Shown here: positions 10,621-35,854 of the stretch, piece by piece | Numbering within the stretch: position 1 is the stretch's first letter | Layout: the number at the start of each line of letters is the position of its first letter | Made by a program: the position numbers and the translations under genes | Source: Naegleria gruberi | Lineage: Eukaryota | Assembly: GCA_000004985.1 (NCBI GenBank) | Contig: GG738869.1 | Length of the DNA: 64,000 nt | Strand: one strand, 5' to 3' | The notes under the pieces: generated by a model | What the model was told of the DNA's origin: nothing | Database searches by the model: none | The model's input: the letters and a program-made list of their open reading frames with translations, nothing else

Positions 10621-11430
10621 ATGATGAACAATATGATGTTACGTTTTGGCAAGAAGTTAACTTCAACTCACTCTAATCAATTCATTTTCGGAAGTGGATT
10701 AATTTTGAATCAAAGAAATGTTAAAACTGATATCAACAAAATTTCAAGAGGAGACATTATTAAAGATGGACCAAATAAATATCTTCAAATTGAAAGATAT
10801 GTTTTTTCAAAGAGAGGACGTTGTAATGCTATTGTTACAGTTGAAACTGTTGATATGTTATATGGAAAAAAGATTAGTAAAAAGTATAGAGGAGGTGAAT
10901 CAGTGGATTTATGTGAATATACAACAAAGGATGTAGTTTATTCATCGGAAAATAATAAGGGATTTGTTTTTGAAGATATGAAGGATGGTACTGAATATGT
11001 TGCCTCAAAGACACTTCTTACTCCTGAAATGACACAAATCATGCAAGGAGGTTTTCTCAAAAAGATGGTTATCGGAATTGATGAAGAAACCAATCTTGCT
11101 GTTAAGGTCATGTTCCCAACAGCCCTTGTTTCAACTGTTGAGGAAACAGAAGATCCAATAAGTGGTGTACCAAATGATAGACATTCTCCAGTCACAAAGA
11201 ATGCACTCTTGGATAATGGTATTTCTATCAAAGTGCCTGGATTTATTGCAAATGGTGACAGAGTCAAATTCTCTACACGTGATTGGTCCTATGTTGCTAG
11301 AGCCACTGAAGAGGATGAAGATGATATTGAATTTGAAGATGAATCATCGAAATATGAAGACAATGAGTCGGTAGAGGAAATTGAAGAGGATGAGAATGCA
11401 GAAGATGAAGAAGACAATAAGAGGAGATAA
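10621..11430 (+). CDS. Bacterial-type translation elongation factor P (EF-P) homolog with an N-terminal presequence and an acidic C-terminal tail. Probably organellar (mitochondrial).
   Basis: 269-aa ORF starting at an ATG. The core aligns to EF-P in its KOW-like domain I (ISRGDIIKDGPNKYLQIERYVFSKRGRCNAIVTVETVDMLYGKKISKKYRGGESVD), in the OB domains (GFVFEDMKDGTEYVAS...) and in the C-terminal signature (ISIKVPGFIANGDRVKFSTRDWSYVARA versus bacterial VVKVPLFV..GE.IKVDTR.GEYV.R.). The ~45-aa N-terminal extension (MMNNMMLRFGKKLTSTHSN...) looks like a targeting peptide. The tail EEDEDDIEFEDE... is a eukaryotic-style add-on. Confidence 0.7.
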   Translation: MMNNMMLRFGKKLTSTHSNQFIFGSGLILNQRNVKTDINKISRGDIIKDGPNKYLQIERYVFSKRGRCNAIVTVETVDMLYGKKISKKYRGGESVDLCEYTTKDVVYSSENNKGFVFEDMKDGTEYVASKTLLTPEMTQIMQGGFLKKMVIGIDEETNLAVKVMFPTALVSTVEETEDPISGVPNDRHSPVTKNALLDNGISIKVPGFIANGDRVKFSTRDWSYVARATEEDEDDIEFEDESSKYEDNESVEEIEEDENAEDEEDNKRR

Positions 11431-11562: not shown

Positions 11563-11940
11563 TTACTCTTTCTTTTCCTCTTCTTTCTTTTCTTCGTCCT
11601 TCTTTTCTTCCTTCTTTTCGTCCTTTTTAGTCTTCTTTGTGGTGGTGGTCTTTTTAGTCTTCTTTGGCTTTTCAATCTTCTTAGCAGCAGCTCTCTTTTC
11701 ATAAGTGTTTGCTGTGGCTCTCTTTACAGTCTTTACATCACCAGATTGAGCAACGGTCTTGTAGTCAATATTCTTTCTCTTTCTTGGAGTAGCAATAATG
11801 TTAGCAGCATCAATCTTGGATCCTTCAACAGCTGATCTCTTTGTCTTATCGACTTCAGTACTTCTTCTCTTAGTCCAGTGGTCTTCGTTGACTTCACCCT
11901 TGGCAGCGGTTTTCTTGGTATCTTTCTTAGCAGCTGGCAT
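11563..11940 (-). CDS. Small lysine-rich basic protein (125 aa) with a C-terminal K/E repeat tail. It could be a chromatin- or nucleic-acid-associated protein.
   Basis: ATG at 11940 (MPAAKKDTKKTAAKGEVNEDHWTKRRS...KKTKKTTTTKKTKKDEKKEEKKDEEKKEEEKKE). It is very basic and has no recognisable fold. The overlapping plus-strand ORFs (11488..11835, 11798..12010) are low-complexity mirror artefacts. Confidence 0.5.
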   Translation of the reverse strand: MPAAKKDTKKTAAKGEVNEDHWTKRRSTEVDKTKRSAVEGSKIDAANIIATPRKRKNIDYKTVAQSGDVKTVKRATANTYEKRAAAKKIEKPKKTKKTTTTKKTKKDEKKEEKKDEEKKEEEKKE

Positions 11941-18036: not shown

Positions 18037-18583
18037 TTTTTTTTAAAGACGTCCATTAAAATGAGCCTAAGGTTCAATTATGAGCCTAGTTTTTTTGCCC
18101 TGAGTCAGAGTTTACAATATTATAAATTATTTACTCAGTTTTCAAACAATTTGAAATAATAAATAAATATTCTTATTCATTTACATATTCCAAGCAGAAT
18201 CAAAATAAAGATTAAAATTTTAAAAAAAAGAATTAAAAATTAATGAGGGAACCACAAGTTTTTTTAAAAATATTTGATGCGCAATTGTTTGCGAGTTAAC
18301 CTACTCCAATAAGGTATGTCAATCACCCTCTCTTATGTTGCTGTCTGTTTCAGTTGTAGAGAAGCATTCAGCGTCGAAGGATAGGCATAAGAAGCCACTC
18401 TAAGACAGTTCCTTGGTACCTCTCAGAGATTGTGCCTTGTAATTCATTCAGAGTTGATACATTTTACCTTTTTCACAAATCAATTGAATTTCTCGGAAGC
18501 AAAAAAACAAATTCCGAACCTATTTTTATCTCAAATTTAAAAGCTCAAGATTCCACTTAATTCTATTTTTCAATTTGAAAAAA

Positions 18584-21034
18584 ATGATTAAAAGGCTTGT
18601 TAATAATACTCAATCAACACACAAATTGATTGGAAAGCAATGCGGACATTCATTGAGCAAATTTAATCCATCACCACTGATTGGCTTATCATTTAATTCT
18701 ATTGGTGGTATTAATAGTAGTAGTATTAATAGAAGTGGTAGCAATGTGTCAAGCTTTGGTAATAATCATTTCGGATCAATTGTGTCACAAATTAAATCCT
18801 ATCATACATCTCAATCTAATAGATTCGGAATGGGAGGAGGAAAGATGCCATGGCAAGAGACACAGTATGAAAAGGGAGAAGCCTTGAAAAAGTTTGGTAC
18901 AGATTTAACAGAAGAAGCTAGAAAGGGTAAATTGTATCCAATCATTGGTAGAGATGATGTAATTCGTAAGATATTACAAGTTCTATCAAGACAAACAAAG
19001 AGTAATCCAATCATAACAGGTGTTCAAGGTTGTGGTAAAACAGCTGTATTGGAAGGATTAGCTCAAAGAATTGTAAAAGGTGAAGTGCCTGATTCAATTA
19101 AGAATAAGAGATTAATAGCATTGGATTTGGCATCCATCATTTCTGGTAGTAAATTTAGAGGTGAATTTGAAGAACGTGTACAGGCAATTCTAAGAGATGT
19201 TAAGGAACATCAGGGAGAAATTATTCTATTCATTGATGAAATTCACATGATTGTAAGTGCTGGTAGTGCTCAAGGTTCTCTTGATATGGCAAATATGTTA
19301 AAACCATATTTAGCAAGAGGAGAACTTCATTGTATTGGTGCTACAACTTTGGATGAATATAGATTATATATTGAAAAAGATAAGGCACTTGCACGTAGAT
19401 TTGAACAAGTCACATTGAGTGAACCAACTGTTATTGATACAATTGCAATGTTGAGAGGTAGAAAGGCTAACCTGGAAGCTCACCATGGTGTTAGAATTAC
19501 AGATTCTGCCATTGTTCAAGCTGCTATTTTATCAGATCGTTATATTACTGATAGATTTTTACCTGATAAGGCAATTGATTTAATTGATGAATCATGTGCC
19601 TGTATTAAATTAGAGCAAGAATCAAAACCAGAAGCATTGGAAAAAATTGATCGTTCAATTATCATTTCACGTATTGAATTGGAATCTTTGAGAAATGAAC
19701 AAGATCCAGCAAGTATTGAAAGAAGAAAGAAAGTTGAAAAGAAAATTGAAGAAGAACAACGTGAAAGTGATAGACTCTCAAATATTTGGTATCAAGAAAG
19801 AGAAAAATTATTGAAAGCTAAAGAGTTGAAACAAAAATTAGTTAATTTGGGAAAGGAATTGGAAGAAGCTTTGAGAAAATCAGATTTCCAAACAGCTTCT
19901 GCATTGAAATACAAGACAATTCCAGATTTAAAGAAGGAAATTGAACAATCTTCAGTTGGATTCAAAATGATGAGTGATAGTGTACAAGTTGAAGATATTT
20001 CAAGAATTATTTCAAGAAAGACTGGTATTCCACTTGAAAGCTTAATGACTTCTGAAAAGGATAAATTGCTTCACATGGAAGAACACTTAGCTCAACAAGT
20101 TATTGGTCAACCAGAAGCTATCAGAGCTATTTGTAATACCATCAGAGTTTCTAGAGCTGGTCTCAGTGATCCAAAGAGACCACTTGGTTCATTCTGCTTC
20201 TTAGGTAGCTCAGGAGTGGGTAAAACATGGATTACAAAACAATTAGCTAAATTCCTATTCAATGATGAAAATGCTATGGTCAGAATTGATTGTTCCGAAT
20301 TAATGGAACCACATTCTGTCTCTAAATTAGTAGGATCACCACCTGGTTATGTTGGTTATGAAGATGCACCACAATTAACTGAATCAATTAGAAGAAAACC
20401 ATATCAGATTGTTTTATTTGATGAAATCGAGAAGGCTCACAAGGATGTTTTGAATATTTTACTTCAAATTCTTGATGAAGGTCACATTACAGATTCACAT
20501 GGTAATCATGTTAACTTTAAGAATACTATTGTTGTCATGACAAGTAATGTTGGATCTGAAATATTTACAAATTTACCTGAAGGTGTTCCATCTTATCAAG
20601 CCAAAGATGATGTTTCACAAGTTCTCAGACACTACTTTAGACCTGAATTTTTAAATCGTATTGATAATATTATTTACTTTAATAGATTGGGTAAAGAAAG
20701 TATGAGAAAGATTATTGATTTACAATTGGATGTAATTGAAAAACAATTGAGAGAAAGAAGAATGCTCCTTCAAGTAACACCAAGTGGAAGAGAATTCCTA
20801 TCACGTGTTGGTTATGATATTTATTTTGGTGCTAGACCTTTAAAGAGAGCTATTCAAGTTCACTTGTTAAATCAATTGGCAACTTTATTATTGGAAGGTC
20901 AAGTTAAGGAAAATTCTGAAATACTTGTTGATTACGTTCCTGGAAAATTGAATGAAGATGGTGAAGAAACTTTACAAATTACTGGAAAGATTTTACCTGA
21001 ACAAATTGTTGAAACTAATGTTGAAAGAGATTAA
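18584..21034 (+). CDS. ClpB/Hsp104/Hsp78-family AAA+ disaggregase with two nucleotide-binding domains. The N-terminal presequence suggests a mitochondrial Hsp78-type protein.
   Basis: The ORF track starts at 18575 with a TTG. The first ATG is at 18584 ([18 protein letters not shown]...). NBD1 Walker A is [10 protein letters not shown] and its Walker B is ILFIDEIH. It has a ClpB-type middle coiled-coil ([11 protein letters not shown]...LKKEIEQ). NBD2 Walker A is GSSGVGKT, with a sensor/arginine region [24 protein letters not shown]...R.EFLNRID.IIYFN. Confidence 0.85.
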
Positions 21035-22835: not shown

Positions 22836-24899
22836 ATGATGCAAAGTGAAGAGGATGCATCCTCACTAAAATCCTATCCATCCTCTAATCATCATCATCA
22901 TTATGATCATCATCATCGTACCGGTAGTAGTAGTGGTACTGGTAATGGTGTTAGTAGTACAACCACTACACCTGTTTCTCCAGTAAAGAAAAAAGTAGTA
23001 GCCTTTGGATCCGATGTTAGTGATGATGAACAACAAGATGAAGATAGTGAATTAATTGTTTATATGGATGAGAGTAGATTATTTAACAAACATCGTAATC
23101 ATTATTCATCTTCCAATAATACCTCATCCAATTCTACTGTTAATAATTCATCTAATCAAGGCTCAAATGATGAAGAATTAACAGCCTTTGAAAATTTCTC
23201 AAATTCAGTTTCGGGAACTAAAATTTCATATTCAAGTCGTAAAAGAAGAGTATCTGTTTGGATACCAACTTTATCAAATGGTTTAATTTCATCACTAACT
23301 GCTAAAATTACAAATACTGTTGAATTTGATTTTAATAAGAAGAATTTAGATTCAAATGCTAGTCCTATGAAAGAAAAGAAATATGTTGGATATTCTATTG
23401 ATATTACAATTGGATTTAATAATGATCATACTAAATGTCAATGGTCTGTTATAAGAAGATATAATGAATTTAAGAAGTTTTATTCACTTTTAAAGAAAAC
23501 ATGTACAAATAAGGATAAATTTGGATTAATTAAATTTCCAAATAAGAGTCCAATTACAAGTTTTAACGATTCAAATTTATTAGAATTTAGAAAAAAGATA
23601 TTTAATGAATTTTTGAGTTCAGTCATTTCAATGGCTTCACATGAAACTGAAGAAGGAAAGAAAATTTCTTCTTTTGAATTTTTGATTTATTATTTTTTAG
23701 ATATTCATAATTCACCTGTTTCATTTTTATTTGATCATCCATATGGAGAAGTTTTTAAACAAATTAATCAATTTTATCAAACAACAAGAGAAGAAAAGAG
23801 AAGATTAAAAAGATTAATTGAAATTGAAAGAAATTATGATGAAGAACAAGAAAGTGATAATGCTCAATATTTATTAAGAGAACAAGAATGGTATGAATAT
23901 AAATTTCAAAGACTTGAAGAATTAAATAGAGAATTAAATGAATTAAGATTAGGAGGTGATGATTTTTTTATAGATTTAAAAGGAAAACCACATATTCTTT
24001 CAGTTGATAAATTATCAAGTTCACTTCATATTTATTTATTAAGTGAAAATACATCTGATAGATTAGAACATACATTTGTACAACAAATTTATATAGATTC
24101 AATTCAAATTATTAGAGAATGTAATTCAACATATAGAGGAGATGGATTTGAAATGATTGATATTCAATTATTGAATGGTGAATCTTTTCAATTTTATGTT
24201 TTTGATAGAAAGGAATTAATTTACTCTGTTGGTGCTCAAGTTAATCAGTACAAATTAGCAAAAGCTAAATTTATTAACTATCTTGTTTGTACAGTTTTAA
24301 GATTGAAAAAGGAAAAATATGATGAAAGTAATCAAATTCATGAACAAGATTTAATGGAACTTTATTCATTACTTAAACCTGATGATCCACTTACAAAGAG
24401 AAAATCAAGACAATGGATTAATATTGGATTTCAAGGTGATAATCCTTCAACAGATTTTAGAGGAGGTGGTTACATGTCATTGAGAATGTTATTATTCTTT
24501 GCTCAAAATGAAAGTGAAACGATGAAATTATTATTAAGTGATCATGCTGATTATCCATTGTGTGTATCTGGAATTAATTTATTCTTTACTTTATGTACTT
24601 TATTAGATTTGGATAATATTTCAACATCACCTACTATTGAAAGTATTGAAGAGAAATTTCCACTTTTCAGATTTTTATGTCTTTTATTGAAGAATAATTA
24701 TGAACAAGATTGTGAACATTTATTTGGACAAGCATTCATTCTATTATGTAGATTATTACACAAAATATTCATTGATGAATGTGCTGGATATATGGACTAT
24801 CCAAATATTGTGGAAAAGTGTAAAAAATTATTAGAGGAGGCACTTGTAAAGAGACCAAATGATTTTGATAGTTTGAGAGTTTCACTTGGTCTTTTATAA
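22836..24899 (+). CDS. PX (phox-homology) + ELMO/CED-12 domain protein, 687 aa.
   Basis: ATG at 22836. The N-terminus is low-complexity with a His run (HHHHYDHHHR). The PX-like region is YSIDITIGFNNDHTKCQWSVIRRYNEFKKFYSLLKK...FPNKSPI...LEFRKKIFNEFLSSV. The C-terminal ELMO-domain signature is KRKSRQWINIGFQGDNPSTDFRGGGYMSLRMLLFFAQ. Confidence 0.75.
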   Translation: MMQSEEDASSLKSYPSSNHHHHYDHHHRTGSSSGTGNGVSSTTTTPVSPVKKKVVAFGSDVSDDEQQDEDSELIVYMDESRLFNKHRNHYSSSNNTSSNSTVNNSSNQGSNDEELTAFENFSNSVSGTKISYSSRKRRVSVWIPTLSNGLISSLTAKITNTVEFDFNKKNLDSNASPMKEKKYVGYSIDITIGFNNDHTKCQWSVIRRYNEFKKFYSLLKKTCTNKDKFGLIKFPNKSPITSFNDSNLLEFRKKIFNEFLSSVISMASHETEEGKKISSFEFLIYYFLDIHNSPVSFLFDHPYGEVFKQINQFYQTTREEKRRLKRLIEIERNYDEEQESDNAQYLLREQEWYEYKFQRLEELNRELNELRLGGDDFFIDLKGKPHILSVDKLSSSLHIYLLSENTSDRLEHTFVQQIYIDSIQIIRECNSTYRGDGFEMIDIQLLNGESFQFYVFDRKELIYSVGAQVNQYKLAKAKFINYLVCTVLRLKKEKYDESNQIHEQDLMELYSLLKPDDPLTKRKSRQWINIGFQGDNPSTDFRGGGYMSLRMLLFFAQNESETMKLLLSDHADYPLCVSGINLFFTLCTLLDLDNISTSPTIESIEEKFPLFRFLCLLLKNNYEQDCEHLFGQAFILLCRLLHKIFIDECAGYMDYPNIVEKCKKLLEEALVKRPNDFDSLRVSLGLL

Positions 24900-25276
24900 C
24901 AATTTTAATTAAATTTAGTAATTTAAGTTCAGTTGTAAATTTCATCATCCACCATGATGGATCTTCAAAATAACTCATTTTCAAAGACTAGTTGGAGTAT
25001 CTCATCAAATCTTGAGGTTTAGGATCAAACAGTAATTATGCCAAAGTTTCTTCAATTTCTTTTTCACCAATTTGCATTTGTTTACAGTTTCGATCAAACG
25101 TGATGTGGTTCAATGAATCCATTACAAGTTGTTTGAATGACAAAGTCTTTGCAATCCAAAGCTGTGCAGAAATGAACCTTTCATAAGGCTTTCATTATCT
25201 CCACACTCCGTAAGCAACAGGAGTTTAGGTCCTACCTAATTAATCATTCTCATCACAATGCCAGCTGTCAAAAAAA

Positions 25277-26956
25277 ATGGGTTCAACGATTTCACAAAGT
25301 GAAAGTAATGTTGCTTCTTTTTTTGCGGAAGATGATATTGTTGGTGATGATGGATCCATCTATAATCACCAACAATATTCAACAAAAAACAATTCAGCCA
25401 CCACTTCTAATTCTACTAATTCTAATTCTAATAATTCTAATGTTTCTAATAATAATACTATTAATAATAATATATATTGTGTTGGATGTAGTGATGGAGG
25501 TAAAACTTCATTTCACAATCAATTAAAATCCAAATTTCACATGAAAATTCACAAGAATGAAAAAATCAGAGCTACACTCATCATTAAAACTTGTCTATCA
25601 TCAATTCAAGATATAATTTTCATTGTCATGTCAGATCAAGAAAGAAATGATTTTATTCATAAAATTAAAAAATCAGATCCACAAATTTATGATTTTTTAC
25701 TCAACTTGACAAATATTACAAGAAAATGGGAATTTACAAAATCAGAATCAATTCAATATGGACAATATATTAGAATGATATGGTCTAAATATAAAATAAT
25801 ACAAGAATTATATTATCTATATAAGGATTCTCATCATTTAATTGATAATATTGATGTGTTGTGTAATGAAATGAATATTATTATTTCACAATTATCAGAT
25901 CATCAGAAAAATCAATTTTTAAAAAATACTAAACGACGATTAAATCAACGTTTAAATTCTACCACTGAAATTGTAACAAGTAATTCTTTAAATTGTAATC
26001 AATTGGAAAATAATTTATATGATCAAGATGATGAAGAAGATGGAGAAGAACAGCAACAACAAGATGCTGAAGATTTATATCAATTAGATAATCATATTAA
26101 TAATATTATGAATTCAAAAAAAAAGTCAAAAAAAATTTCAATATTTTCATCTAAATTTAAATCTAATTTTAATTCATCTCAACAAAATAATAATAATACA
26201 TCTCTAAATAATGAAAATAATAATGAAAATAATAATACTAGTCATTATGATAAATATTCACCACTTATTAAATTTTTAACAATTGGTAAAAATGAAACAA
26301 AATTTCAATTTGATTCTAAAAATTTATTTACAATTTTAGATTTAGGTGGAAGAGGAGCAGAAAAAAAGAAATGGGAATTCTTTTTAAATGAAACTAATGC
26401 TGATTTTGTTTTATTTTTTGTCAGCATGTCTGAATTTAATCAAAATTTAATTGAATCTGATAATATAAATAGATTACATGAAAGTTTAACTATATATAGA
26501 GATATTATTAATAGAGCTTTATTAAGAAATACTAAAGATATTATTTTAATATTTACTAAACCTGATATATTTTTACATAAAATGGAAAATAATATTGAAT
26601 TTAAATTACCAAATATAGAAGGATTAAATATTCCTAAAATGGAAACTATTAGACCTGAATTATTAAAATTAAAAGATAATATTAAATTAGAAATTAATAA
26701 TTTAATTAATTTATTTGAAAATATTCATTTAAATTCATTTAATAATATAACATTTAAATATCATATTGTAAATATAATAAATATTAAAGAATGTCAAGAA
26801 TTTATTGAAATTTTATTAAGACAAACAATTGTAAAAGATTATATTGAAAATTCATTACATAAATTGACAAGTATAAATTATTCTCCTTTTATATCAAAAT
26901 GTTTATTTAAGGAAAGTAAATTTGAAATTCAAAGATTTTTATTTTTCAGATTGTAA
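25277..26956 (+). CDS. Highly divergent heterotrimeric G-protein alpha-subunit-like GTPase (559 aa) with long Asn-rich insertions.
   Basis: The G1/P-loop is VGCSDGGKTSF (compare GAGESGKST). The G3/switch II is ILDLGGRGAEKKKWEFFLNETNADFVLFFVSMSEFNQ (compare DVGGQRSERKKWIHCFE.VTAIIFCVALS.YDQ). The G4 is IFTKPDIF (compare NKKDLF). N-runs and the block (NENNNENNN) lie between the Ras-like segments. Confidence 0.65.
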   Translation: MGSTISQSESNVASFFAEDDIVGDDGSIYNHQQYSTKNNSATTSNSTNSNSNNSNVSNNNTINNNIYCVGCSDGGKTSFHNQLKSKFHMKIHKNEKIRATLIIKTCLSSIQDIIFIVMSDQERNDFIHKIKKSDPQIYDFLLNLTNITRKWEFTKSESIQYGQYIRMIWSKYKIIQELYYLYKDSHHLIDNIDVLCNEMNIIISQLSDHQKNQFLKNTKRRLNQRLNSTTEIVTSNSLNCNQLENNLYDQDDEEDGEEQQQQDAEDLYQLDNHINNIMNSKKKSKKISIFSSKFKSNFNSSQQNNNNTSLNNENNNENNNTSHYDKYSPLIKFLTIGKNETKFQFDSKNLFTILDLGGRGAEKKKWEFFLNETNADFVLFFVSMSEFNQNLIESDNINRLHESLTIYRDIINRALLRNTKDIILIFTKPDIFLHKMENNIEFKLPNIEGLNIPKMETIRPELLKLKDNIKLEINNLINLFENIHLNSFNNITFKYHIVNIINIKECQEFIEILLRQTIVKDYIENSLHKLTSINYSPFISKCLFKESKFEIQRFLFFRL

Positions 26957-27241
26957 TTTTATTTGTTTACAGTAATAAATTATTTAAATAATATTATAAA
27001 ATATTCAATTACTATTCTTCTCCAATCAGCTGTATTCACTAACTTATTTACATAAAACGAATAGGTAGCATAGATCTTACTCAGAGATCTTATCCTCTAA
27101 ACTAGATTCGAACTATTACAAGTATAATATTACAAATATATCAGTTTCTTCATAATTATCTTTTGATTTTTGTAATTGTTAAATTAGAAGCTAATTAGAT
27201 CTCTAACAAAGGCTAAAAAAAAACTTCTTCAAATAAAAAAA

Positions 27242-29703
27242 ATGTCTTCAACCGATAATCACCAACAACAACAACAATTATTAAAATTTGAACTTGTTCA
27301 ATCACTTGTTGATCATGAATTTTGGTACGATCTGGAAAATAAAAAGTTATTAGAATACAAATTAGATAACAAGCCTAAACAAATTCAAGCCTCCTATAAT
27401 ACTGGTAAATTATTTAATTCTCAAGTATTAAATGCTACTCATCATACTAATGATCAAGTAAATCTTAGTTCCAAGTTGAGATTGGGTGAAAATGCTTTTG
27501 ATCATCATCATTTAAATACTTCCAATACTATTAATACTATTAATACTACTATTAACAATAATAATAATTTATATTATTCAAATGGTACATTATATAATGC
27601 TAATACTATTGAAGAATTTAATAATTATGATAAAAAGAGTATTTTAAGAAATGTTGGATTAGAAACAATTTATAACAAAATTGTTAATCAAGAATGGTTA
27701 AAAAATCCAAATGAATTAACTCACTTTTTATTATTAACATTTGCAGATTTAAAACAACATGCTTTCCATTATTGGTTTGCATTTCCATCTTTATCTTTAT
27801 CTGATATGGAAATTAAATATGAAAAATCAGAATTATTAAATGAAGAAATTCAATTAAAATTACAAAATGAATTATTAACATTTAAATCTAATCATTCTAA
27901 AGAAGAACATGGATTTTATTTAATTATTGAAAATGAAAATTCTTATCAAATTAAATCACTTTCTGAATTTGAAAATGTTATAAATGGAAATGAAAAGTAT
28001 TATTTAGGATTTTCAGATCCATCTGCATTGAATGAATATCCATCAATGATTTTAAGAAATTATTTATTAGCAAGTTATTTAACATTTAAAAAAGATTTAT
28101 TTAATGTTATTGCTTTTAGACAAGATCAAAGTTTATTATTAAAAAATGTTAAAATTACAACAAGTATTGAAAATATTGAAAATATTCAAGAATTAAAAGA
28201 TAAAATTTCAGTTATTGGATGGGAAAAGAATACTAAAAATAAATTAGGACCTAGATTTACAAATATGGGAAGTACAATGGATCCAATTAAATTAGCAGAA
28301 AGTTCAGTAACATTAAATTTACAATTAATGAAATGGAGAATGTTTCCAACACTTAATTTAGATAAATTAGGTAAAACTAAATGTTTATTAATTGGAAGTG
28401 GAACACTTGGATGTCATGTTGCAAGAAATTTAATGGCGTGGGGAATATTTAATATAACATTTGTTGATAGAACACGTGTTAGTTTTAGTAATCCAGTTAG
28501 ACAACCATTATATGAATATGAAGATTGTTTAAATGGTGGTAAAGATAAAGCATCATGTGCTGCTGAACATTTACGTAGAATTTATCCAAATGTTAATGTT
28601 CAATCACATAGTTTAGATATTCCAATGCCAGGTCATTTCATTACAGATCGTCAAAAAACTTTAGAATCCTATAAGAAATTACATGACCTCATTGAAGAAC
28701 ATGATGTTATTTATTTATTAACTGATACAAGAGAATCAAGATGGTTACCTTCGTTAATTGGTATTAGAAAAAAAAAGATTATTATTAATGCTGCTTTAGG
28801 TTTTGAATCTTATCTTGTTATGAGATATGGTGTTTATGGTGATAATAGCAATGATAACAACAATAATGATAGTACTAATGAAAACAATGATGAATTTAAA
28901 GAAATGACATCAAAGAGATTGGGTTGTTATTTCTGTAATGATGTTGTTGCTCCTGTTAATGTAAGTAAGAATAATATGACAATTTCATGTGTGATAATGA
29001 ACTATATATTGAACTAACTATATATTGAAATATTTTATAGAGTACAAAGGATAGAACACTTGATCAACAATGTACTGTAACAAGACCAGGAGTTAGTGCC
29101 ATTGCAGGATCCTTAGCAGTTGAATTACTTGTTTCATTGACACATCATCCAGAATATAAATATGCTTCTGCATATAATCCAACAAGTCAAAATAATGATG
29201 GACATGTTGAGTCAGATTTAGGAGTTGTTCCTCATCAAATTCGTGGATCAATTTCAAATTATCAAACCAATTTATTATATGGTTCAAGTTATAATCAATG
29301 TACTTGTTGTTCTCCAATTGTTTTGCAAAATTATGCAAAGGATGATTTTAATTTCTTGGAACGTTGTTTTAATGATTCTAAATATTTGGAAGAATTAACT
29401 GGTTTAAAACAATTACATGAACAAACTTTGAAATTATTGCAAGATTTTGATTATTCAAGTGAAGAAGAAGAGGATGATGAAAATATTAATGAAAAATCGT
29501 CAACAACAAAGGAGCAACAAGCCTCCACAATTACTACCACAGAAAAGAAGGAAGAAGCATTGACAGAAATGAGTAAAGAAGCACTTATTGAAAAGATTAA
29601 ACAACTTGAAAAGGAGAATCAACAATTGAAAAAGACTCACCCACCTTCCAAGGCTACTGCTACAGATGAAGAGGATGATTTGGATGGATTTGAGGTTCTT
29701 TAA
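27242..29703 (+). CDS. atg7: Autophagy E1-like enzyme Atg7, about 789 aa. Two exons: 27242..28960 and 29053..29703.
   Basis: The N-terminal domain (FELVQSLVDHEFWYDLENKKLLEYKLD) is Atg7-specific. The adenylation domain is KCLLIGSGTLGCHVARNLMAWGIFNITFVDRTRVSFSNPVRQPLYEYEDCLNGGKDKASCAAEHLRRIYP. Exon 1 ends CNDVVAPVN|gtaagt. The 92-nt intron carries an ACTAAC branch-like motif and ends ttttatag. Exon 2 reads STKDRTLDQQCTVTRPGVSAIAGSLAVELLVS (catalytic Cys region), followed by a C-terminal coiled/acidic tail. Confidence 0.85.
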
Positions 29704-32657: not shown

Positions 32658-32707
32658 NNNNNNNNNNNNNNNNNNNNNNNNNNNNNNNNNNNNNNNNNNN
32701 NNNNNNN
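32658..32707. other. Assembly gap of 50 N.
   Basis: Run of N. It interrupts the 5' part of the DNA polymerase eta gene. Confidence 0.99.
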
Positions 32708-33754: not shown

Positions 33755-35854
33755 ATGCAATCATTTCAATCTTCACCACCATCCGAACCTCTTCCCTCCT
33801 GCTCTTCAACCACTTGCCAATCCTGCAGAAAACTCCACAGAAAATGTGATAAACTTCTTCCGTCCTGTTCCTACTGCACAAAAAGAGGCTACGTTTGTTG
33901 TTATGAAAAAACCAGAGATGAACAATCGGTTGTAATCCGAAAAAAGAATGAAAACCCTTCGTTAAATTATCATCTCCATCATGACAATGATACAACTCTT
34001 GTAAATAATAGTAATCATCATAATAATAATAATAATTTAGTATCATCTGGATTTGATAGTAGTAGTAATAATATGATGATGGTGATGAATAATAGTAATA
34101 ATAATTTTAATGTAAATAATAATAAGCAAAATAGGTATAGATCGGTTCCTTATCAATCGACTGCTGGTTCTTCGTTGATATTTTCCTCTCAAAGAAATGA
34201 AAACAATTCTATGAATTATTCAATGATGATGAATGATTATCAACAGCAGCAGCAATCAGCAGCTTTTGTAAATATTGCAAATATGTTTAATNNNNNNNNN
34301 NNNNNNNNNNNNNNNNNNNNNNNNNNNNNNNNNNNNNNNNNNNNNNNNNNNNNNNNNNNNNNNNNNNNNNNNNNNNNNNNNNNNNNNNNNNNNNNNNNNN
34401 NNNNNNNNNNNNNNNNNNNNNNNNNNNNNNNNNNNNNNNNNNNNNNNNNNNNNNNNNNNNNNNNNNNNNNNNNNNNNNNNNNNNNNNNNNNNNNNNNNNN
34501 NNNNNNNNNNNNNNNNNNNNNNNNNNNNNNNNNNNNNNNNNNNNNNNNNNNNNNNNNNNNNNNNNNNNNNNNNNNNNNNNNNNNNNNNNNNNNNNNNNNN
34601 NNNNNNNNNNNNNNNNNNNNNNNNNNNNNNNNNNNNNNNNNNNNNNNNNNNNNNNNNNNNNNNNNNNNNNNNNNNNNNNNNNNNNNNNNNNNNNNNNNNN
34701 NNNNNNNNNNNNNNNNNNNNNNNNNNNNNNNNNNNNNNNNNNNNNNNNNNNNNNNNNNNNNNNNNNNNNNNNNNNNNNNNNNNNNNNNNNNNNNNNNNNN
34801 NNNNNNNNNNNNNNNNNNNNNNNNNNNNNNNNNNNNNNNNNNNNNNNNNNNNNNNNNNNNNNNNNNNNNNNNNNNNNNNNNNNNNNNNNNNNNNNNNNNN
34901 NNNNNNNNNNNNNNNNNNNNNNNNNNNNNNNNNNNNNNNNNNNNNNNNNNNNNNNNNNNNNNNNNNNNNNNNNNNNNNNNNNNNNNNNNNNNNNNNNNNN
35001 NNNNNNNNNNNNNNNNNNNNNNNNNNNNNNNNNNNNNNNNNNNNNNNNNNNNNNNNNNNNNNNNNNNNNNNNNNNNNNNNNNNNNNNNNNNNNNNNNNNN
35101 NNNNNNNNNNNNNNNNNNNNNNNNNNNNNNNNNNNNNNNNNNNNNNNNNNNNNNNNNNNNNNNNNNNNNNNNNNNNNNNNNNNNNNNNNNNNNNNNNNNN
35201 NNNNNNNNNNNNNNNNNNNNNNNNNNNNNNNNNNNNNNNNNNNNNNNNNNNNNNNNNNNNNNNNNNNNNNNNNNNNNNNNNNNNNNNNNNNNNNNNNNNN
35301 NNNNNNNNNNNNNNNNNNNNNNNNNNNNNNNNNNNNNNNNNNNNNNNNNNNNNNNNNNNNNNNNNNNNNNNNNNNNNNNNNNNNNNNNNNNNNNNNNNNN
35401 NNNNNNNNNNNNNNNNNNNNNNNNNNNNNNNNNNNNNNNNNNNNNNNNNNNNNNNNNGATCTATTTACAGCAGAGAAATAGTGCATCGGGAATAGAGTCA
35501 TTATTTGATTTTGGAGAGGATATCTTTTCCATAGAGTCTCTTTCCAATTCATCACCAAGCTCATCAAATTGCTCGAAAGAAAATCTAACACCACAAACCA
35601 TTTTCGATACCTATCAGTCAGATTACGCCCCACTTTTCCGAGACTTTGGTATAGATATGGAAATAGTTGATGTATTCATTGAGAATATGAGTGAACAAGA
35701 AAAATTATTTCATAATGACAAGACGAAACTAGCAGAAAAGAGAATGGAACTTGTAGAATCTTTCAAGGCAATATCTGGAAAGAAGAAGGATGTATTTGGC
35801 ATTGTAGCTTGTGAATTTTTAAAGAAACAACTTCTTTTTAATGAAAATAACTAG
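33755..35854 (+). CDS. Zn(II)2Cys6 binuclear-cluster (Gal4-type) DNA-binding protein, Asn-rich. The coding region is interrupted by the 1166-N gap (34292..35457), so length and frame continuity across the gap are unknown.
   Basis: ATG at 33755 (MQSFQSSPPSEPLPSCSSTT). It is followed by CQSCRKLHRKCDKLLPSCSYCTKRGYVCCY, which matches C-x2-C-x6-C-x6-C-x2-C-x6-C spacing. Downstream are N/M/Q-rich tracts (NNNNNN, MMMVMNN, QQQQQ). After the gap an open frame continues to a stop at 35854 (…IESLFDFGEDIFSIESLSN...KKQLLFNENN*). Confidence 0.55.
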   Translation: MQSFQSSPPSEPLPSCSSTTCQSCRKLHRKCDKLLPSCSYCTKRGYVCCYEKTRDEQSVVIRKKNENPSLNYHLHHDNDTTLVNNSNHHNNNNNLVSSGFDSSSNNMMMVMNNSNNNFNVNNNKQNRYRSVPYQSTAGSSLIFSSQRNENNSMNYSMMMNDYQQQQQSAAFVNIANMFNXXXXXXXXXXXXXXXXXXXXXXXXXXXXXXXXXXXXXXXXXXXXXXXXXXXXXXXXXXXXXXXXXXXXXXXXXXXXXXXXXXXXXXXXXXXXXXXXXXXXXXXXXXXXXXXXXXXXXXXXXXXXXXXXXXXXXXXXXXXXXXXXXXXXXXXXXXXXXXXXXXXXXXXXXXXXXXXXXXXXXXXXXXXXXXXXXXXXXXXXXXXXXXXXXXXXXXXXXXXXXXXXXXXXXXXXXXXXXXXXXXXXXXXXXXXXXXXXXXXXXXXXXXXXXXXXXXXXXXXXXXXXXXXXXXXXXXXXXXXXXXXXXXXXXXXXXXXXXXXXXXXXXXXXXXXXXXXXXXXXXXXXXXXXXXXXXXXXXXXXXXXXXXXXXXXXXXXXXXXXXXXXXXXXXIYLQQRNSASGIESLFDFGEDIFSIESLSNSSPSSSNCSKENLTPQTIFDTYQSDYAPLFRDFGIDMEIVDVFIENMSEQEKLFHNDKTKLAEKRMELVESFKAISGKKKDVFGIVACEFLKKQLLFNENN
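34292..35457. other. Assembly gap of 1166 N.
   Basis: Run of N inside the Zn2Cys6 gene. The X-only ORFs in the track (34275..35495 on the plus strand, 34287..35633 on the minus strand) are artefacts of translating N. Confidence 0.99.

Follow-up and report, generated by a model that had tools for sequence, protein, structure and literature searches.

Mitochondria are generally held to lack elongation factor P (EF-P) (PMC11381339, PMC12856214), a statement that rests on human and yeast mitochondria. In these organelles, stalling of the mitoribosome at proline motifs is eased by TACO1/YebC (PMC11381339), which binds at the A-site side (PMC13602936). Two papers mention mitochondrial EF-P-like proteins, both in passing. 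For the jakobid Andalucia godoyi, EF-P is listed, without characterisation, in the predicted mitochondrial proteome (Gray et al. 2020, PMC7050145), and for Plasmodium falciparum the EF-P-like protein PF3D7_0913400 is predicted to be mitochondrial (van Esveld et al. 2021, PMC8550323). Our literature searches under “mitochondrial EF-P” or At4g26310 returned nothing, and those pairing EF-P with either Naegleria or mitochondrial translation in Arabidopsis turned up nothing relevant.

Here, we analysed an EF-P homologue gene in a window of 64,000 nucleotides of DNA from Naegleria gruberi. The Naegleria protein thus joins the Andalucia and Plasmodium precedents. Naegleria has no plastid, and mitoribosomes are its only bacterial-type ribosomes. 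Judging from sequence comparison and a structural model, this nuclear gene is likely to encode a mitochondrion-targeted orthologue of bacterial EF-P. Its features, all on the + strand, are as follows.

10621..11430, + strand: EF-P homologue gene, a complete intronless ORF from ATG to stop (stop codon 11428-11430), 269 aa
10621..10722, + strand: N-terminal extension, residues 1-34, a putative mitochondrial presequence; net charge +4, no Asp or Glu
10714..10722, + strand: junction R32-N33-V34 before K35, a motif of the R-2/R-3 type as at mitochondrial processing peptidase (MPP) sites
10723..10911, + strand: domain I (KOW-like), residues 35-97; Pfam EFP_N at residues 39-95, model strands in 34-97 with pLDDT ~95; boundary with domain II transferred from E. 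coli residue 64
10810..10830, + strand: β3-β4 loop K64-R65-G66-R67-C68-N69-A70, between model strands 54-63 and 71-78
10819-10821, + strand: tip Arg67, codon CGT, at the centre of the seven-residue loop
10912..11115, + strand: domain II (OB fold), residues 98-165; model pLDDT 86-95, superposes on bacterial EF-P
11116..11304, + strand: domain III (OB fold), residues 166-228; Pfam Elong-fact-P_C, holds D186, Y224 and R227
11305..11427, + strand: acidic C-terminal tail, residues 229-269; 41 aa with 8 Asp and 16 Glu, net charge -20, ending in KRR

The product of the open reading frame matches, at 100% identity from end to end, an uncharacterised NCBI entry, “predicted protein [Naegleria gruberi]”, encoded on a contig of 747 kb; the gene therefore has no introns. 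Its GC content (0.338) and GC3 (0.237) agree with those of the neighbouring genes, which encode an ACBP, a ubiquitin hydrolase, Vps26, a DTW protein, an RSE1/DDB1-type protein, a G-alpha and ATG7; the eukaryotic ACBP gene lies 105 bp upstream. Long contigs (716-814 kb) that are assigned to two further species, N. lovaniensis and N. fowleri, carry orthologues. Because of these eukaryotic neighbours, the local GC and GC3 values and the orthologues on long Naegleria contigs, the gene is a native nuclear gene of N. gruberi, and the eukaryotic origin asserted by the first-pass annotation is borne out by an ordinary nuclear context. EF-P is otherwise a bacterial protein and horizontal transfer of its genes between bacteria is documented (PMC11388002), so that one might think of bacterial contamination of the assembly, or of a recent transfer whose product acts outside mitochondria. 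This is scarcely credible: not only do the position next to ACBP among typical eukaryotic genes, the base composition and the presence in two other Naegleria species speak against it, but the protein also bears eukaryote-specific extensions and its nearest relatives appear to be eukaryotic, with no particular bacterial group among them. Contamination as such is effectively refuted by gene context and base composition. An antisense ORF at 10938-11267 was also considered and rejected, as it lies wholly within the conserved EF-P coding frame and has no other support.

The protein falls into the EF-P family by several comparisons. Residues 172-227 match Pfam Elong-fact-P_C (E=1.7e-14, 53.7 bits), well past the cut-off of 25, while residues 39-95 match Pfam EFP_N (KOW) with E=2e-4 and 21.7 bits, slightly below a cut-off of 23 that was set for bacterial proteins. 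The NCBIfam EF-P models match the 269-aa protein at E=3e-24 and 2e-23, values that put homology beyond doubt. The scores (TIGR00038, 82.7 bits against a curated cut-off of 185.8; NF001810, 85.6 against 161) lie below thresholds that were likewise set for bacterial proteins. In sequence terms, it is thus a divergent EF-P homologue rather than a typical bacterial equivalog. Domain II gave no Pfam match from sequence. Solved EF-P structures are matched by sequence with E-values down to 8.5e-13, and an AlphaFold2 model has a pLDDT of ~95 across residues 34-228. In Foldseek, this model matches full-length bacterial EF-P structures at E=2e-15 to 1e-12 over ~195 aligned columns with a target TM-score of ~0.8, whereas against eIF5A only two domains align (~135 columns, E ~1e-6). 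Sequence and model together describe a complete three-domain EF-P, with a KOW-like domain followed by two OB domains, and the earlier view of a bona fide EF-P, as opposed to a member of another KOW-domain family, is upheld by the Pfam and NCBIfam matches, the predicted fold and Foldseek. An eIF5A paralogue was ruled out by the third domain, which eIF5A lacks, by the tip Arg and by the weaker fold match. Besides this protein, Naegleria has an eIF5A of its own; that of N. fowleri is PDB 7n4d.

Residues expected of a working factor are in place. In E. coli EF-P, the D145 loop, Y183 and R186 reportedly touch the small subunit and the E-site codon (Huter et al. 2017). By alignment these residues correspond to D186, Y224 and R227, which are invariant in all four Naegleria-type orthologues. 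Seven near-universal EF-P positions (G44, P166, K193, G200, V205, P206 and G212) are also kept. The Naegleria-type orthologues are 73-78% identical in the core and diverge in the sequence of both extensions, a pattern consistent with a core under purifying selection. With a net charge of +1 and a pI of 7.9, this core is nearly neutral; bacterial EF-Ps have a pI of ~5.

We then consider the loop that in bacteria carries the modified residue. The string FSKRGRCNA spans residues 62-70 (nt 10804-10830), and the region of the protein that contains R67 reads YVFSKRGRCNAIV. In two independent MAFFT alignments R67 falls in the column of E. coli Lys34 (the E. coli reference sequence being identical to chain w of 6ENJ). 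R67 also aligns with the tip Lys of C. glutamicum EF-P, Arg32 of P. aeruginosa and Arg33 of E. coli EfpL. Alignments and predicted strands thus agree with the earlier placing of KRGRC at the tip of the EF-P β3-β4 loop. Among the four Naegleria-type sequences the loops are KRGRCNA, KRARSNA and KRARSSA, with K64, R65, R67 and A70 invariant. The first-pass annotation had drawn attention to the Arg tip; Arg67 is indeed present, but it is less singular than implied, since most eukaryotic EF-P homologues with an N-terminal extension (25 of 39) have Arg here. A tip Arg is also common among those bacterial EF-Ps that fit none of the described types.

The same annotation had likened the loop to the NKSGRNAA type, in which Arg32 is rhamnosylated by EarP. 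Were this so, Arg67 would be α-rhamnosylated by an EarP-like glycosyltransferase and the modification would be needed for activity. The two loops do have in common an Arg tip within seven residues, a K-x-G-R-x-x-A pattern (compare FNKSGRNAA of P. aeruginosa) and, in N. gruberi, Gly at position -1; position -2 (R65) is also not Pro, in keeping with the rule described for EF-Ps of the Arg type (PMC6544042). But all five EarP-type EF-Ps examined carry the loop KSGRN[SA]A, to which N. gruberi matches at 4 of 7 positions and the other three Naegleria-type sequences at 3 of 7. Moreover, these other three carry Ala at -1, and in P. putida EF-P the substitution G31A lowers the rhamnosylation rate to <1% of wild type (PMC6544042). 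In neighbour-joining (NJ) trees the five EarP-type sequences form a clade with 100% bootstrap that excludes Naegleria, and P. aeruginosa EF-P scores 35-37 bits against 47-52 bits for the Lys-type EF-P of C. glutamicum. Finally, both dTDP-rhamnose and EarP would be required within the mitochondrial matrix. To our knowledge, EarP occurs in bacteria only. For reference, a genuine EarP adjoins efp in Pseudomonas nitroreducens (Pfam PF10093, 530 bits), and when this EarP was used as query the best 120 of at least 8000 bacterial matches were Pseudomonas-like. The likeness to the rhamnosylated type is therefore not borne out, given the 3-4 of 7 shared loop positions, the Ala at -1 and the place outside the EarP-type clade, and we regard rhamnosylation of Arg67 as very unlikely.

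Two other tip chemistries were compared. EfpL has a tip Arg that works without modification, in a loop longer by one residue and with a strictly conserved Pro at -3 (PMC11611912). The EfpL models score 65.1 and 58.3 bits on the Naegleria protein (cut-offs 216 and 264), below its EF-P scores, and the EfpL NJ clade excludes it (100% support for three sequences, 79% for all four); an EfpL orthologue is ruled out by loop length and by the missing Pro at -3. An unmodified Lys-type EF-P as in Actinobacteria (P30-G-K-G-P34) was rejected as well, the Naegleria loop KRGRCNA having no Pro and an Arg at the tip. By analogy with EfpL and the unmodified actinobacterial EF-Ps, Arg67 is probably used as it is, not rhamnosylated.

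Both ends of the protein extend beyond the bacterial factor. Residue 1 of bacterial EF-P aligns with Naegleria residue 33. In the four orthologues the N-terminal extensions are 34-47 aa long, with net charges of +4 to +7 and no acidic residue at all; the chance of an acid-free extension given the composition of the core is 6e-3 for N. gruberi, and P is ~1e-3 to 6e-3 for each of the four. Their sequence is poorly conserved while their character is conserved, and the model has a pLDDT of ~50 here. Of 21 eukaryotic EF-P homologues with an N-terminal extension, 16 have an Arg in the same alignment column at the junction with the mature domain, and a further four have one 1-3 residues before it; the equivalent stretch in Andalucia is R-G-M-K. 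Assessed from composition and motif only, the extension has the character of a putative mitochondrial presequence, which is what had been proposed for it: it is basic, acid-free and ends in an Arg junction. The acidic C-terminal tail that had also been pointed out is equally plain in the composition, with Asp and Glu making up 24 of its 41 residues. It is probably disordered, as the model gives a pLDDT of 63-77. The other three Naegleria-type proteins end in similar tails, as do Dermamoeba P0116, P0008 and P0150, and the 41-residue tail has no counterpart in characterised EF-Ps.

Relatives of this protein are few. A profile search of 1.8 billion representative proteins retrieved only 503 at E<=1e-3. 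Once Naegleria itself is set aside, the top-ranking ones are for the most part metagenomic or carry an N-terminal extension, and the named sources among them are Cochliopodium, Phalansterium, Vermistella, Dermamoeba, Bangiopsis, Chlorokybus and land plants. Searching with a profile of trimmed eukaryotic EF-P cores yielded 18 proteins, with the plant Orobanche as sole new named source. The Andalucia protein aligns over the full EF-P length with 23% identity (E=5e-16). Andalucia and Naegleria both belong to Discoba and both have gene-rich mitochondrial genomes. In NJ trees Naegleria stands among the eukaryotic sequences, adjoining plants and a Rickettsiales-like group, with bootstrap values of only 1-33%, and on these values we do not claim an alphaproteobacterial origin for the Naegleria EF-P. 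A plastid EF-P was considered and rejected: plastid-like N-extended sequences carry PGKG loops and group apart, and the organism has no plastid.

How might such a factor act? The basic, acid-free presequence of 34 residues would direct import into the matrix, where MPP would remove it near R32-V34. The mature three-domain protein (~K35-R269) would then sit between the P and E sites of the mitoribosome, like bacterial EF-P. There, Arg67 with the flanking Lys64 and Arg65 would stand in for the modified Lys or Arg of the bacterial factors, and the Arg67 loop would stabilise the tRNA so that peptide bonds can form at Pro-Pro and related motifs of proteins encoded in the mitochondrion. Domain III, through the D186 loop, Y224 and R227, would touch the E-site codon as well as the small subunit. 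We infer localisation, cleavage, ribosome binding, polyproline rescue and the modification state alike.

The low scores against curated models, the small number of relatives and a domain II that Pfam does not see mean that the function may have changed. The protein could be an EF-P descendant that is still imported into mitochondria and has lost polyproline rescue, serving for example in RNA binding, ribosome assembly or hibernation, with the acidic tail as a feature that might supply the new activity. Such a change of function would go with the strong divergence just described, with the near-neutral core, with a long tail absent from characterised EF-Ps and with the loss of domain III itself in the Plasmodium relative. 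Yet the three domains and the loop geometry are retained at high model confidence, the basic tip and the residues that correspond to D145, Y183 and R186 do not vary among orthologues, and the seven nearly universal EF-P columns are kept. We therefore judge a loss of the ancestral function unlikely, and prefer a mitochondrial EF-P that would still act as one.

Together with its homologues in Amoebozoa, a red alga and plants, the Naegleria gene suggests that the absence of EF-P is true of humans and yeast and not of eukaryotes generally. A wider proposal, which we put forward tentatively and would sooner doubt than assert, is that these proteins form an ancient and distinct mitochondrial EF-P subfamily, derived from the alphaproteobacterial endosymbiont, kept in Discoba, Amoebozoa and Archaeplastida and lost in opisthokonts, which have TACO1 instead. 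Their unmodified Arg tip in a basic loop would then add a sixth EF-P type to the five distinguished in bacteria, and in several lineages a functional acidic tail would tune binding to the mitoribosome. If this were true, the statement that mitochondria lack EF-P would be wrong for much of eukaryotic diversity. If the Naegleria protein is active, it would provide a natural Arg-tip EF-P, probably unmodified, that bears on why most bacterial EF-Ps require elaborate modifications, and a route to asking how EF-P and TACO1/YebC share the work in organelles. In N. fowleri, a lethal pathogen, a mitochondrial factor of bacterial type would also be a conceivable target for selective drugs, because humans lack EF-P. 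At present, the Naegleria EF-P amounts to an annotation with good support and does not establish a new mechanism.

Set against known systems, the Naegleria protein differs from eIF5A/aIF5A, which have two domains and a hypusinated Lys tip where it has three domains and an Arg tip. TACO1/YebC presumably does the same job with an unrelated fold and is a functional analogue, not a homologue. With canonical bacterial EF-Ps (E. coli 6ENU/3A5Z, T. thermophilus 1UEB and the unmodified C. glutamicum 6S8Z) it has in common the fold, a seven-residue loop with a basic tip and the domain III residues; it differs from them in having Arg and not Lys at the tip, no Pro at -2 and no PGKGP motif, in its presequence and acidic tail, and in an identity of ~21-27% with scores below the curated family cut-offs. 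The EarP-type EF-Ps of β- and γ-proteobacteria, with their rhamnosyl-Arg32, resemble it in the tip Arg, the seven-residue loop and the lack of Pro at -2, and are set apart by the KSGRN[SA]A signature and a clade of their own, three of the four Naegleria-type sequences having Ala at -1. EfpL (YeiP) of enterobacteria has a tip Arg too and offers the best precedent for how the Naegleria tip would act, although its loop, QSPSARGAST, contains an insertion and a Pro where Naegleria has canonical length and K64 at -3.

Further counterparts are found among eukaryotes. The extended EF-Ps of Amoebozoa, red algae and streptophytes are like Naegleria in architecture, in the Arg tip and in the seven-residue loop without Pro at -2, and rank among the stronger matches to the Naegleria profile, while being only 20-30% identical to the Naegleria protein; with bootstrap values of 1-33%, a shared ancestry with it has no statistical support. 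Of these, the Dermamoeba EF-P has an acidic tail with a basic end as in Naegleria, whereas plant EF-Ps differ from it by a QGRGGA loop and an ...IQVELRD motif that resembles Rickettsiales-type KPGKGGAFVQ sequences. PF3D7_0913400 of Plasmodium is likewise a bacterial-type EF-P homologue with a proposed mitochondrial role and a basic residue at E. coli position 34, but it has no C-terminal OB domain, while Naegleria retains all three domains. The Andalucia EF-P, like that of Naegleria, is nuclear-encoded and has three domains, an N-terminal extension and an Arg-x-x-Lys junction before the mature domain; unlike it, Andalucia and its metagenomic relative P0010 have the loop FNRTAQRAA, with Gln in the tip column and Arg one position later, and end without an acidic tail.

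The EF-P gene of Naegleria gruberi is a complete open reading frame whose product matches, at 100% identity from end to end, an NCBI entry, "predicted protein [Naegleria gruberi]", carried by a 747-kb contig. Orthologues of 63-70% identity were found in N. lovaniensis, N. fowleri and one further ENA contig, giving four Naegleria-type proteins. The features discussed below are:

10621-11430, + strand: EF-P gene, ATG to stop, 269 aa
10714-10725, + strand: junction R32-N33-V34 / K35, end of the N-terminal extension
11305-11427, + strand: acidic tail (residues 229-269), 24 acidic residues, net charge -20, ending in KRR

An acyl-CoA-binding-protein gene lies 105 bp upstream, and the other genes around it encode an RSE1/DDB1-type protein, a ubiquitin hydrolase, a DTW protein, Vps26, a ClpB-like ATPase, an ELMO/PX protein, G-alpha and ATG7, all typically eukaryotic. 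Because of these neighbours, and because its GC (0.338) and GC3 (0.237) are in line with those of surrounding genes, the gene is a native, intronless gene of N. gruberi nuclear DNA, and contamination is ruled out as its source.

Several other features of the locus were recorded. GC3 is only 0.09-0.11 in three successive genes (ELMO/PX protein, G-alpha and ATG7; 22836-29017), well below the 0.17-0.39 of genes at 4.6-21 kb; composition appears to vary regionally here, and the genes themselves are ordinary eukaryotic ones. A 125-aa ORF on the - strand (11563-11940) converges on the EF-P gene, whose stop is 133 bp away. The ORF is highly Lys-rich with KKTKK and EEKK repeats and gave no match in a Pfam search; it may encode a small basic nuclear protein or be spurious. 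The gene at 18575-21034 (+ strand) encodes a ClpB/Hsp104/Hsp78-type double-AAA+ disaggregase with AAA_2 and ClpB_D2-small domains, a second product of bacterial ancestry at this locus, which may be organellar. Runs of N occupy 32658-32707, 34292-35457 and 36695-64000; the last real base is thus 36694, followed by 27,306 positions of padding or scaffold gap. ORFs called across 34275-35633 lie mostly inside the second run and were rejected as artefacts.

The first-pass annotation had described a bona fide bacterial-type EF-P, and this holds. Pfam recognises the EF-P C-terminal domain (E=1.7e-14), with the KOW-like N-domain slightly under threshold (21.7 bits versus 23), NCBIfam EF-P models match residues 36-228 (E ~1e-23 to 1e-24), and the best match among solved EF-Ps has E=8.5e-13. 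An AlphaFold2 model built from a 97-sequence alignment has a pLDDT of ~95 over residues 34-228. Foldseek aligned this model over ~195 columns with the bacterial EF-P structures 1UEB, 6S8Z, 3OYY and 6ENJ (E=2e-15 to 5e-12; best target TM-score 0.81), while for eIF5A structures, including that of N. fowleri (7N4D), only two domains align (E ~1e-6). Seven nearly universal EF-P columns are kept, and so are D186, Y224 and R227, which correspond to D145, Y183 and R186 in E. coli. Nevertheless, the bit score is half of that required by NCBI for a bacterial EF-P equivalog, and when 1.84 billion representative proteins were searched exhaustively with a profile, only 503 matched at E<=1e-3 and just 8 at E<=1e-10. 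Thus, the protein belongs to EF-P, yet is very divergent.

The initial observation, including the Arg at the loop tip, was borne out in every particular. In the model, β3 spans residues 54-63 and β4 residues 71-78, so the predicted loop, K64-R65-G66-R67-C68-N69-A70, has the canonical seven residues, and the KRGRC segment does form its tip. In HMMER alignments R67 is matched with the tip Lys in C. glutamicum EF-P, with Arg32 in P. aeruginosa EF-P and with Arg33 in E. coli EfpL, and in two MAFFT alignments with E. coli Lys34 (the E. coli reference being identical to chain w of 6ENJ). All four Naegleria-type proteins have K64, R65, R67 and A70; residue 66 is Gly solely in N. gruberi.

Five EF-P types are recognised: Lys-EpmAB/C, Lys-YmfI, Lys-unmodified PGKGP, Arg-EarP and Arg-EfpL (PMC11388002). 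Judged by its sequence, the protein from Naegleria matches no type in this list. The Lys types are ruled out by the tip Arg. EfpL, whose loop is one residue longer and whose Pro at -3 is strictly conserved (PMC11611912), is ruled out since Naegleria has neither the additional residue nor the Pro; its scores against EfpL models are also below those against EF-P models. The suggested likeness to the EarP-rhamnosylated NKSGRNAA type found no support: all that is common is the tip Arg and the absence of Pro at -2. All five EarP-type EF-Ps examined (Pseudomonas, Aeromonas, Burkholderiales, Methylobacillus and Halothiobacillus loci) have KSGRN[SA]A loops, with which Naegleria-type loops agree at 3-4 of 7 positions. 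Position -1 is Ala in three of the four Naegleria-type proteins; in P. putida EF-P, G31A lowers rhamnosylation to <1% (PMC6544042). In a bootstrapped neighbour-joining analysis (70 sequences, 185 columns), the Naegleria clade has 99% support and falls outside two others: that of the EarP-type sequences, supported at 100%, and that of EfpL, supported at 100% or, once a fourth member is counted, at 79%. The point-estimate tree puts Naegleria inside a eukaryotic assemblage, with plants and a KPGKGGAFVQ group of Rickettsiales-like type next to it; support for this placement is only 1-33%.

Beyond Naegleria, most of the best profile matches either carry an N-terminal extension or come from metagenomes; the named ones belong to Amoebozoa (Cochliopodium, Phalansterium, Vermistella, Dermamoeba), algae (the red alga Bangiopsis, the streptophyte Chlorokybus) and land plants (Withania, Lonicera, Diphasiastrum, Orobanche). 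Extensions of 25 residues or more occur in 39 matches; at the position aligned with the tip, 25 of these have Arg, 8 have Lys (all with PGKG loops of plastid-like type), 4 have Gln, one has Glu and one has Asn. Many bacterial EF-Ps of ~187 aa that belong to no described type likewise have Arg at the tip, within x-G-R-G-G-A loops (P0017 from Chloroflexota, the profile matches P0019, P0025, P0042 and P0043, and similar sequences). These lack KSGRN[SA]A, the loop insertion and Pro at -3, and the five included in the tree lie outside the EarP-type clade; they appear to be neither EarP-type nor EfpL-type.

Residue 1 of bacterial EF-P aligns with residue 33, leaving an extension of 32-34 residues. 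Across the four orthologues the extension measures 34-47 residues, is Ser/Thr-rich with a net charge of +4 to +7 and contains no Asp or Glu; given a core that is 13-14% acidic, the probability of each acid-free extension is 1e-3 to 6e-3. Its sequence is poorly conserved and modelled with low confidence. Of 21 eukaryotic homologues with an N-terminal extension, 16 have Arg in the R32 column and 4 more have it 1-3 residues further upstream. An Arg-x-[V/Y/M]-Lys-[V/T] junction directly before the mature domain (alignment A3, around columns 105-125) is common to Naegleria, Andalucia (R-G-M-K), Amoebozoa and other eukaryotic homologues. The junction has the pattern of R-2/R-3 sites of the mitochondrial processing peptidase, at which cleavage is predicted; its sharing suggests that these proteins have their cleavage site in common and, possibly, that the presequence was gained only once, in an ancient event. 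To our knowledge Naegleria has no plastid, so its only bacterial-type ribosomes would be mitochondrial, making a mitochondrial location a strong inference, in support of the organellar reading first given.

The acidic tail noted initially is present and is treated as largely disordered on the basis of the model. Taken by itself, the core is close to neutral (net +1; pI 7.9, versus ~5 for bacterial EF-Ps). Similar tails with a terminal Lys/Arg cluster (last 41-51 residues, net -15 to -26) occur in the four Naegleria-type proteins, Dermamoeba algensis (P0116) and the eukaryote-like homologues P0008 and P0150; among the homologues compared, none was found in Andalucia, plants or other Amoebozoa. 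The tail may be ancestral or convergent. Speculatively, it could tune binding to a protein-rich mitoribosome or mask the RNA-binding surface.

Save for fold, register and conservation, we infer each step of the following mechanism. The protein would be imported into the mitochondrion and its presequence cut off near residue 34; the mature factor would bind the E-site region of the mitoribosome, domain III contacting the small subunit and E-site codon. R67 is judged to act unmodified, by analogy with EfpL Arg33, which is essential and unmodified (PMC11611912).

The literature on mitochondrial EF-P is split. PMC11381339 and PMC12856214 state that mitochondria have no EF-P homologue, whereas the predicted mitochondrial proteome of Andalucia godoyi lists one (Gray et al., PMC7050145) and an EF-P-like mitochondrial protein without domain III was proposed for Plasmodium (van Esveld et al., PMC8550323). 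Our literature search turned up no study of either the Naegleria protein or the plant EF-P group. The Naegleria gene is a real, well-supported mitochondrial-type EF-P with an Arg tip, a new member of a kind noticed earlier, never studied and overlooked by the mainstream literature. Andalucia EF-P is 23% identical to it (E=5e-16). In Andalucia (PMC7050145, supplementary file 1) and its metagenomic relative P0010 the loop reads FNRTAQRAA: the column aligned with the tip holds Gln, and Arg follows directly after it, whereas Naegleria has Arg at the tip; in these alignments, the tip residue is therefore variable even inside Discoba.
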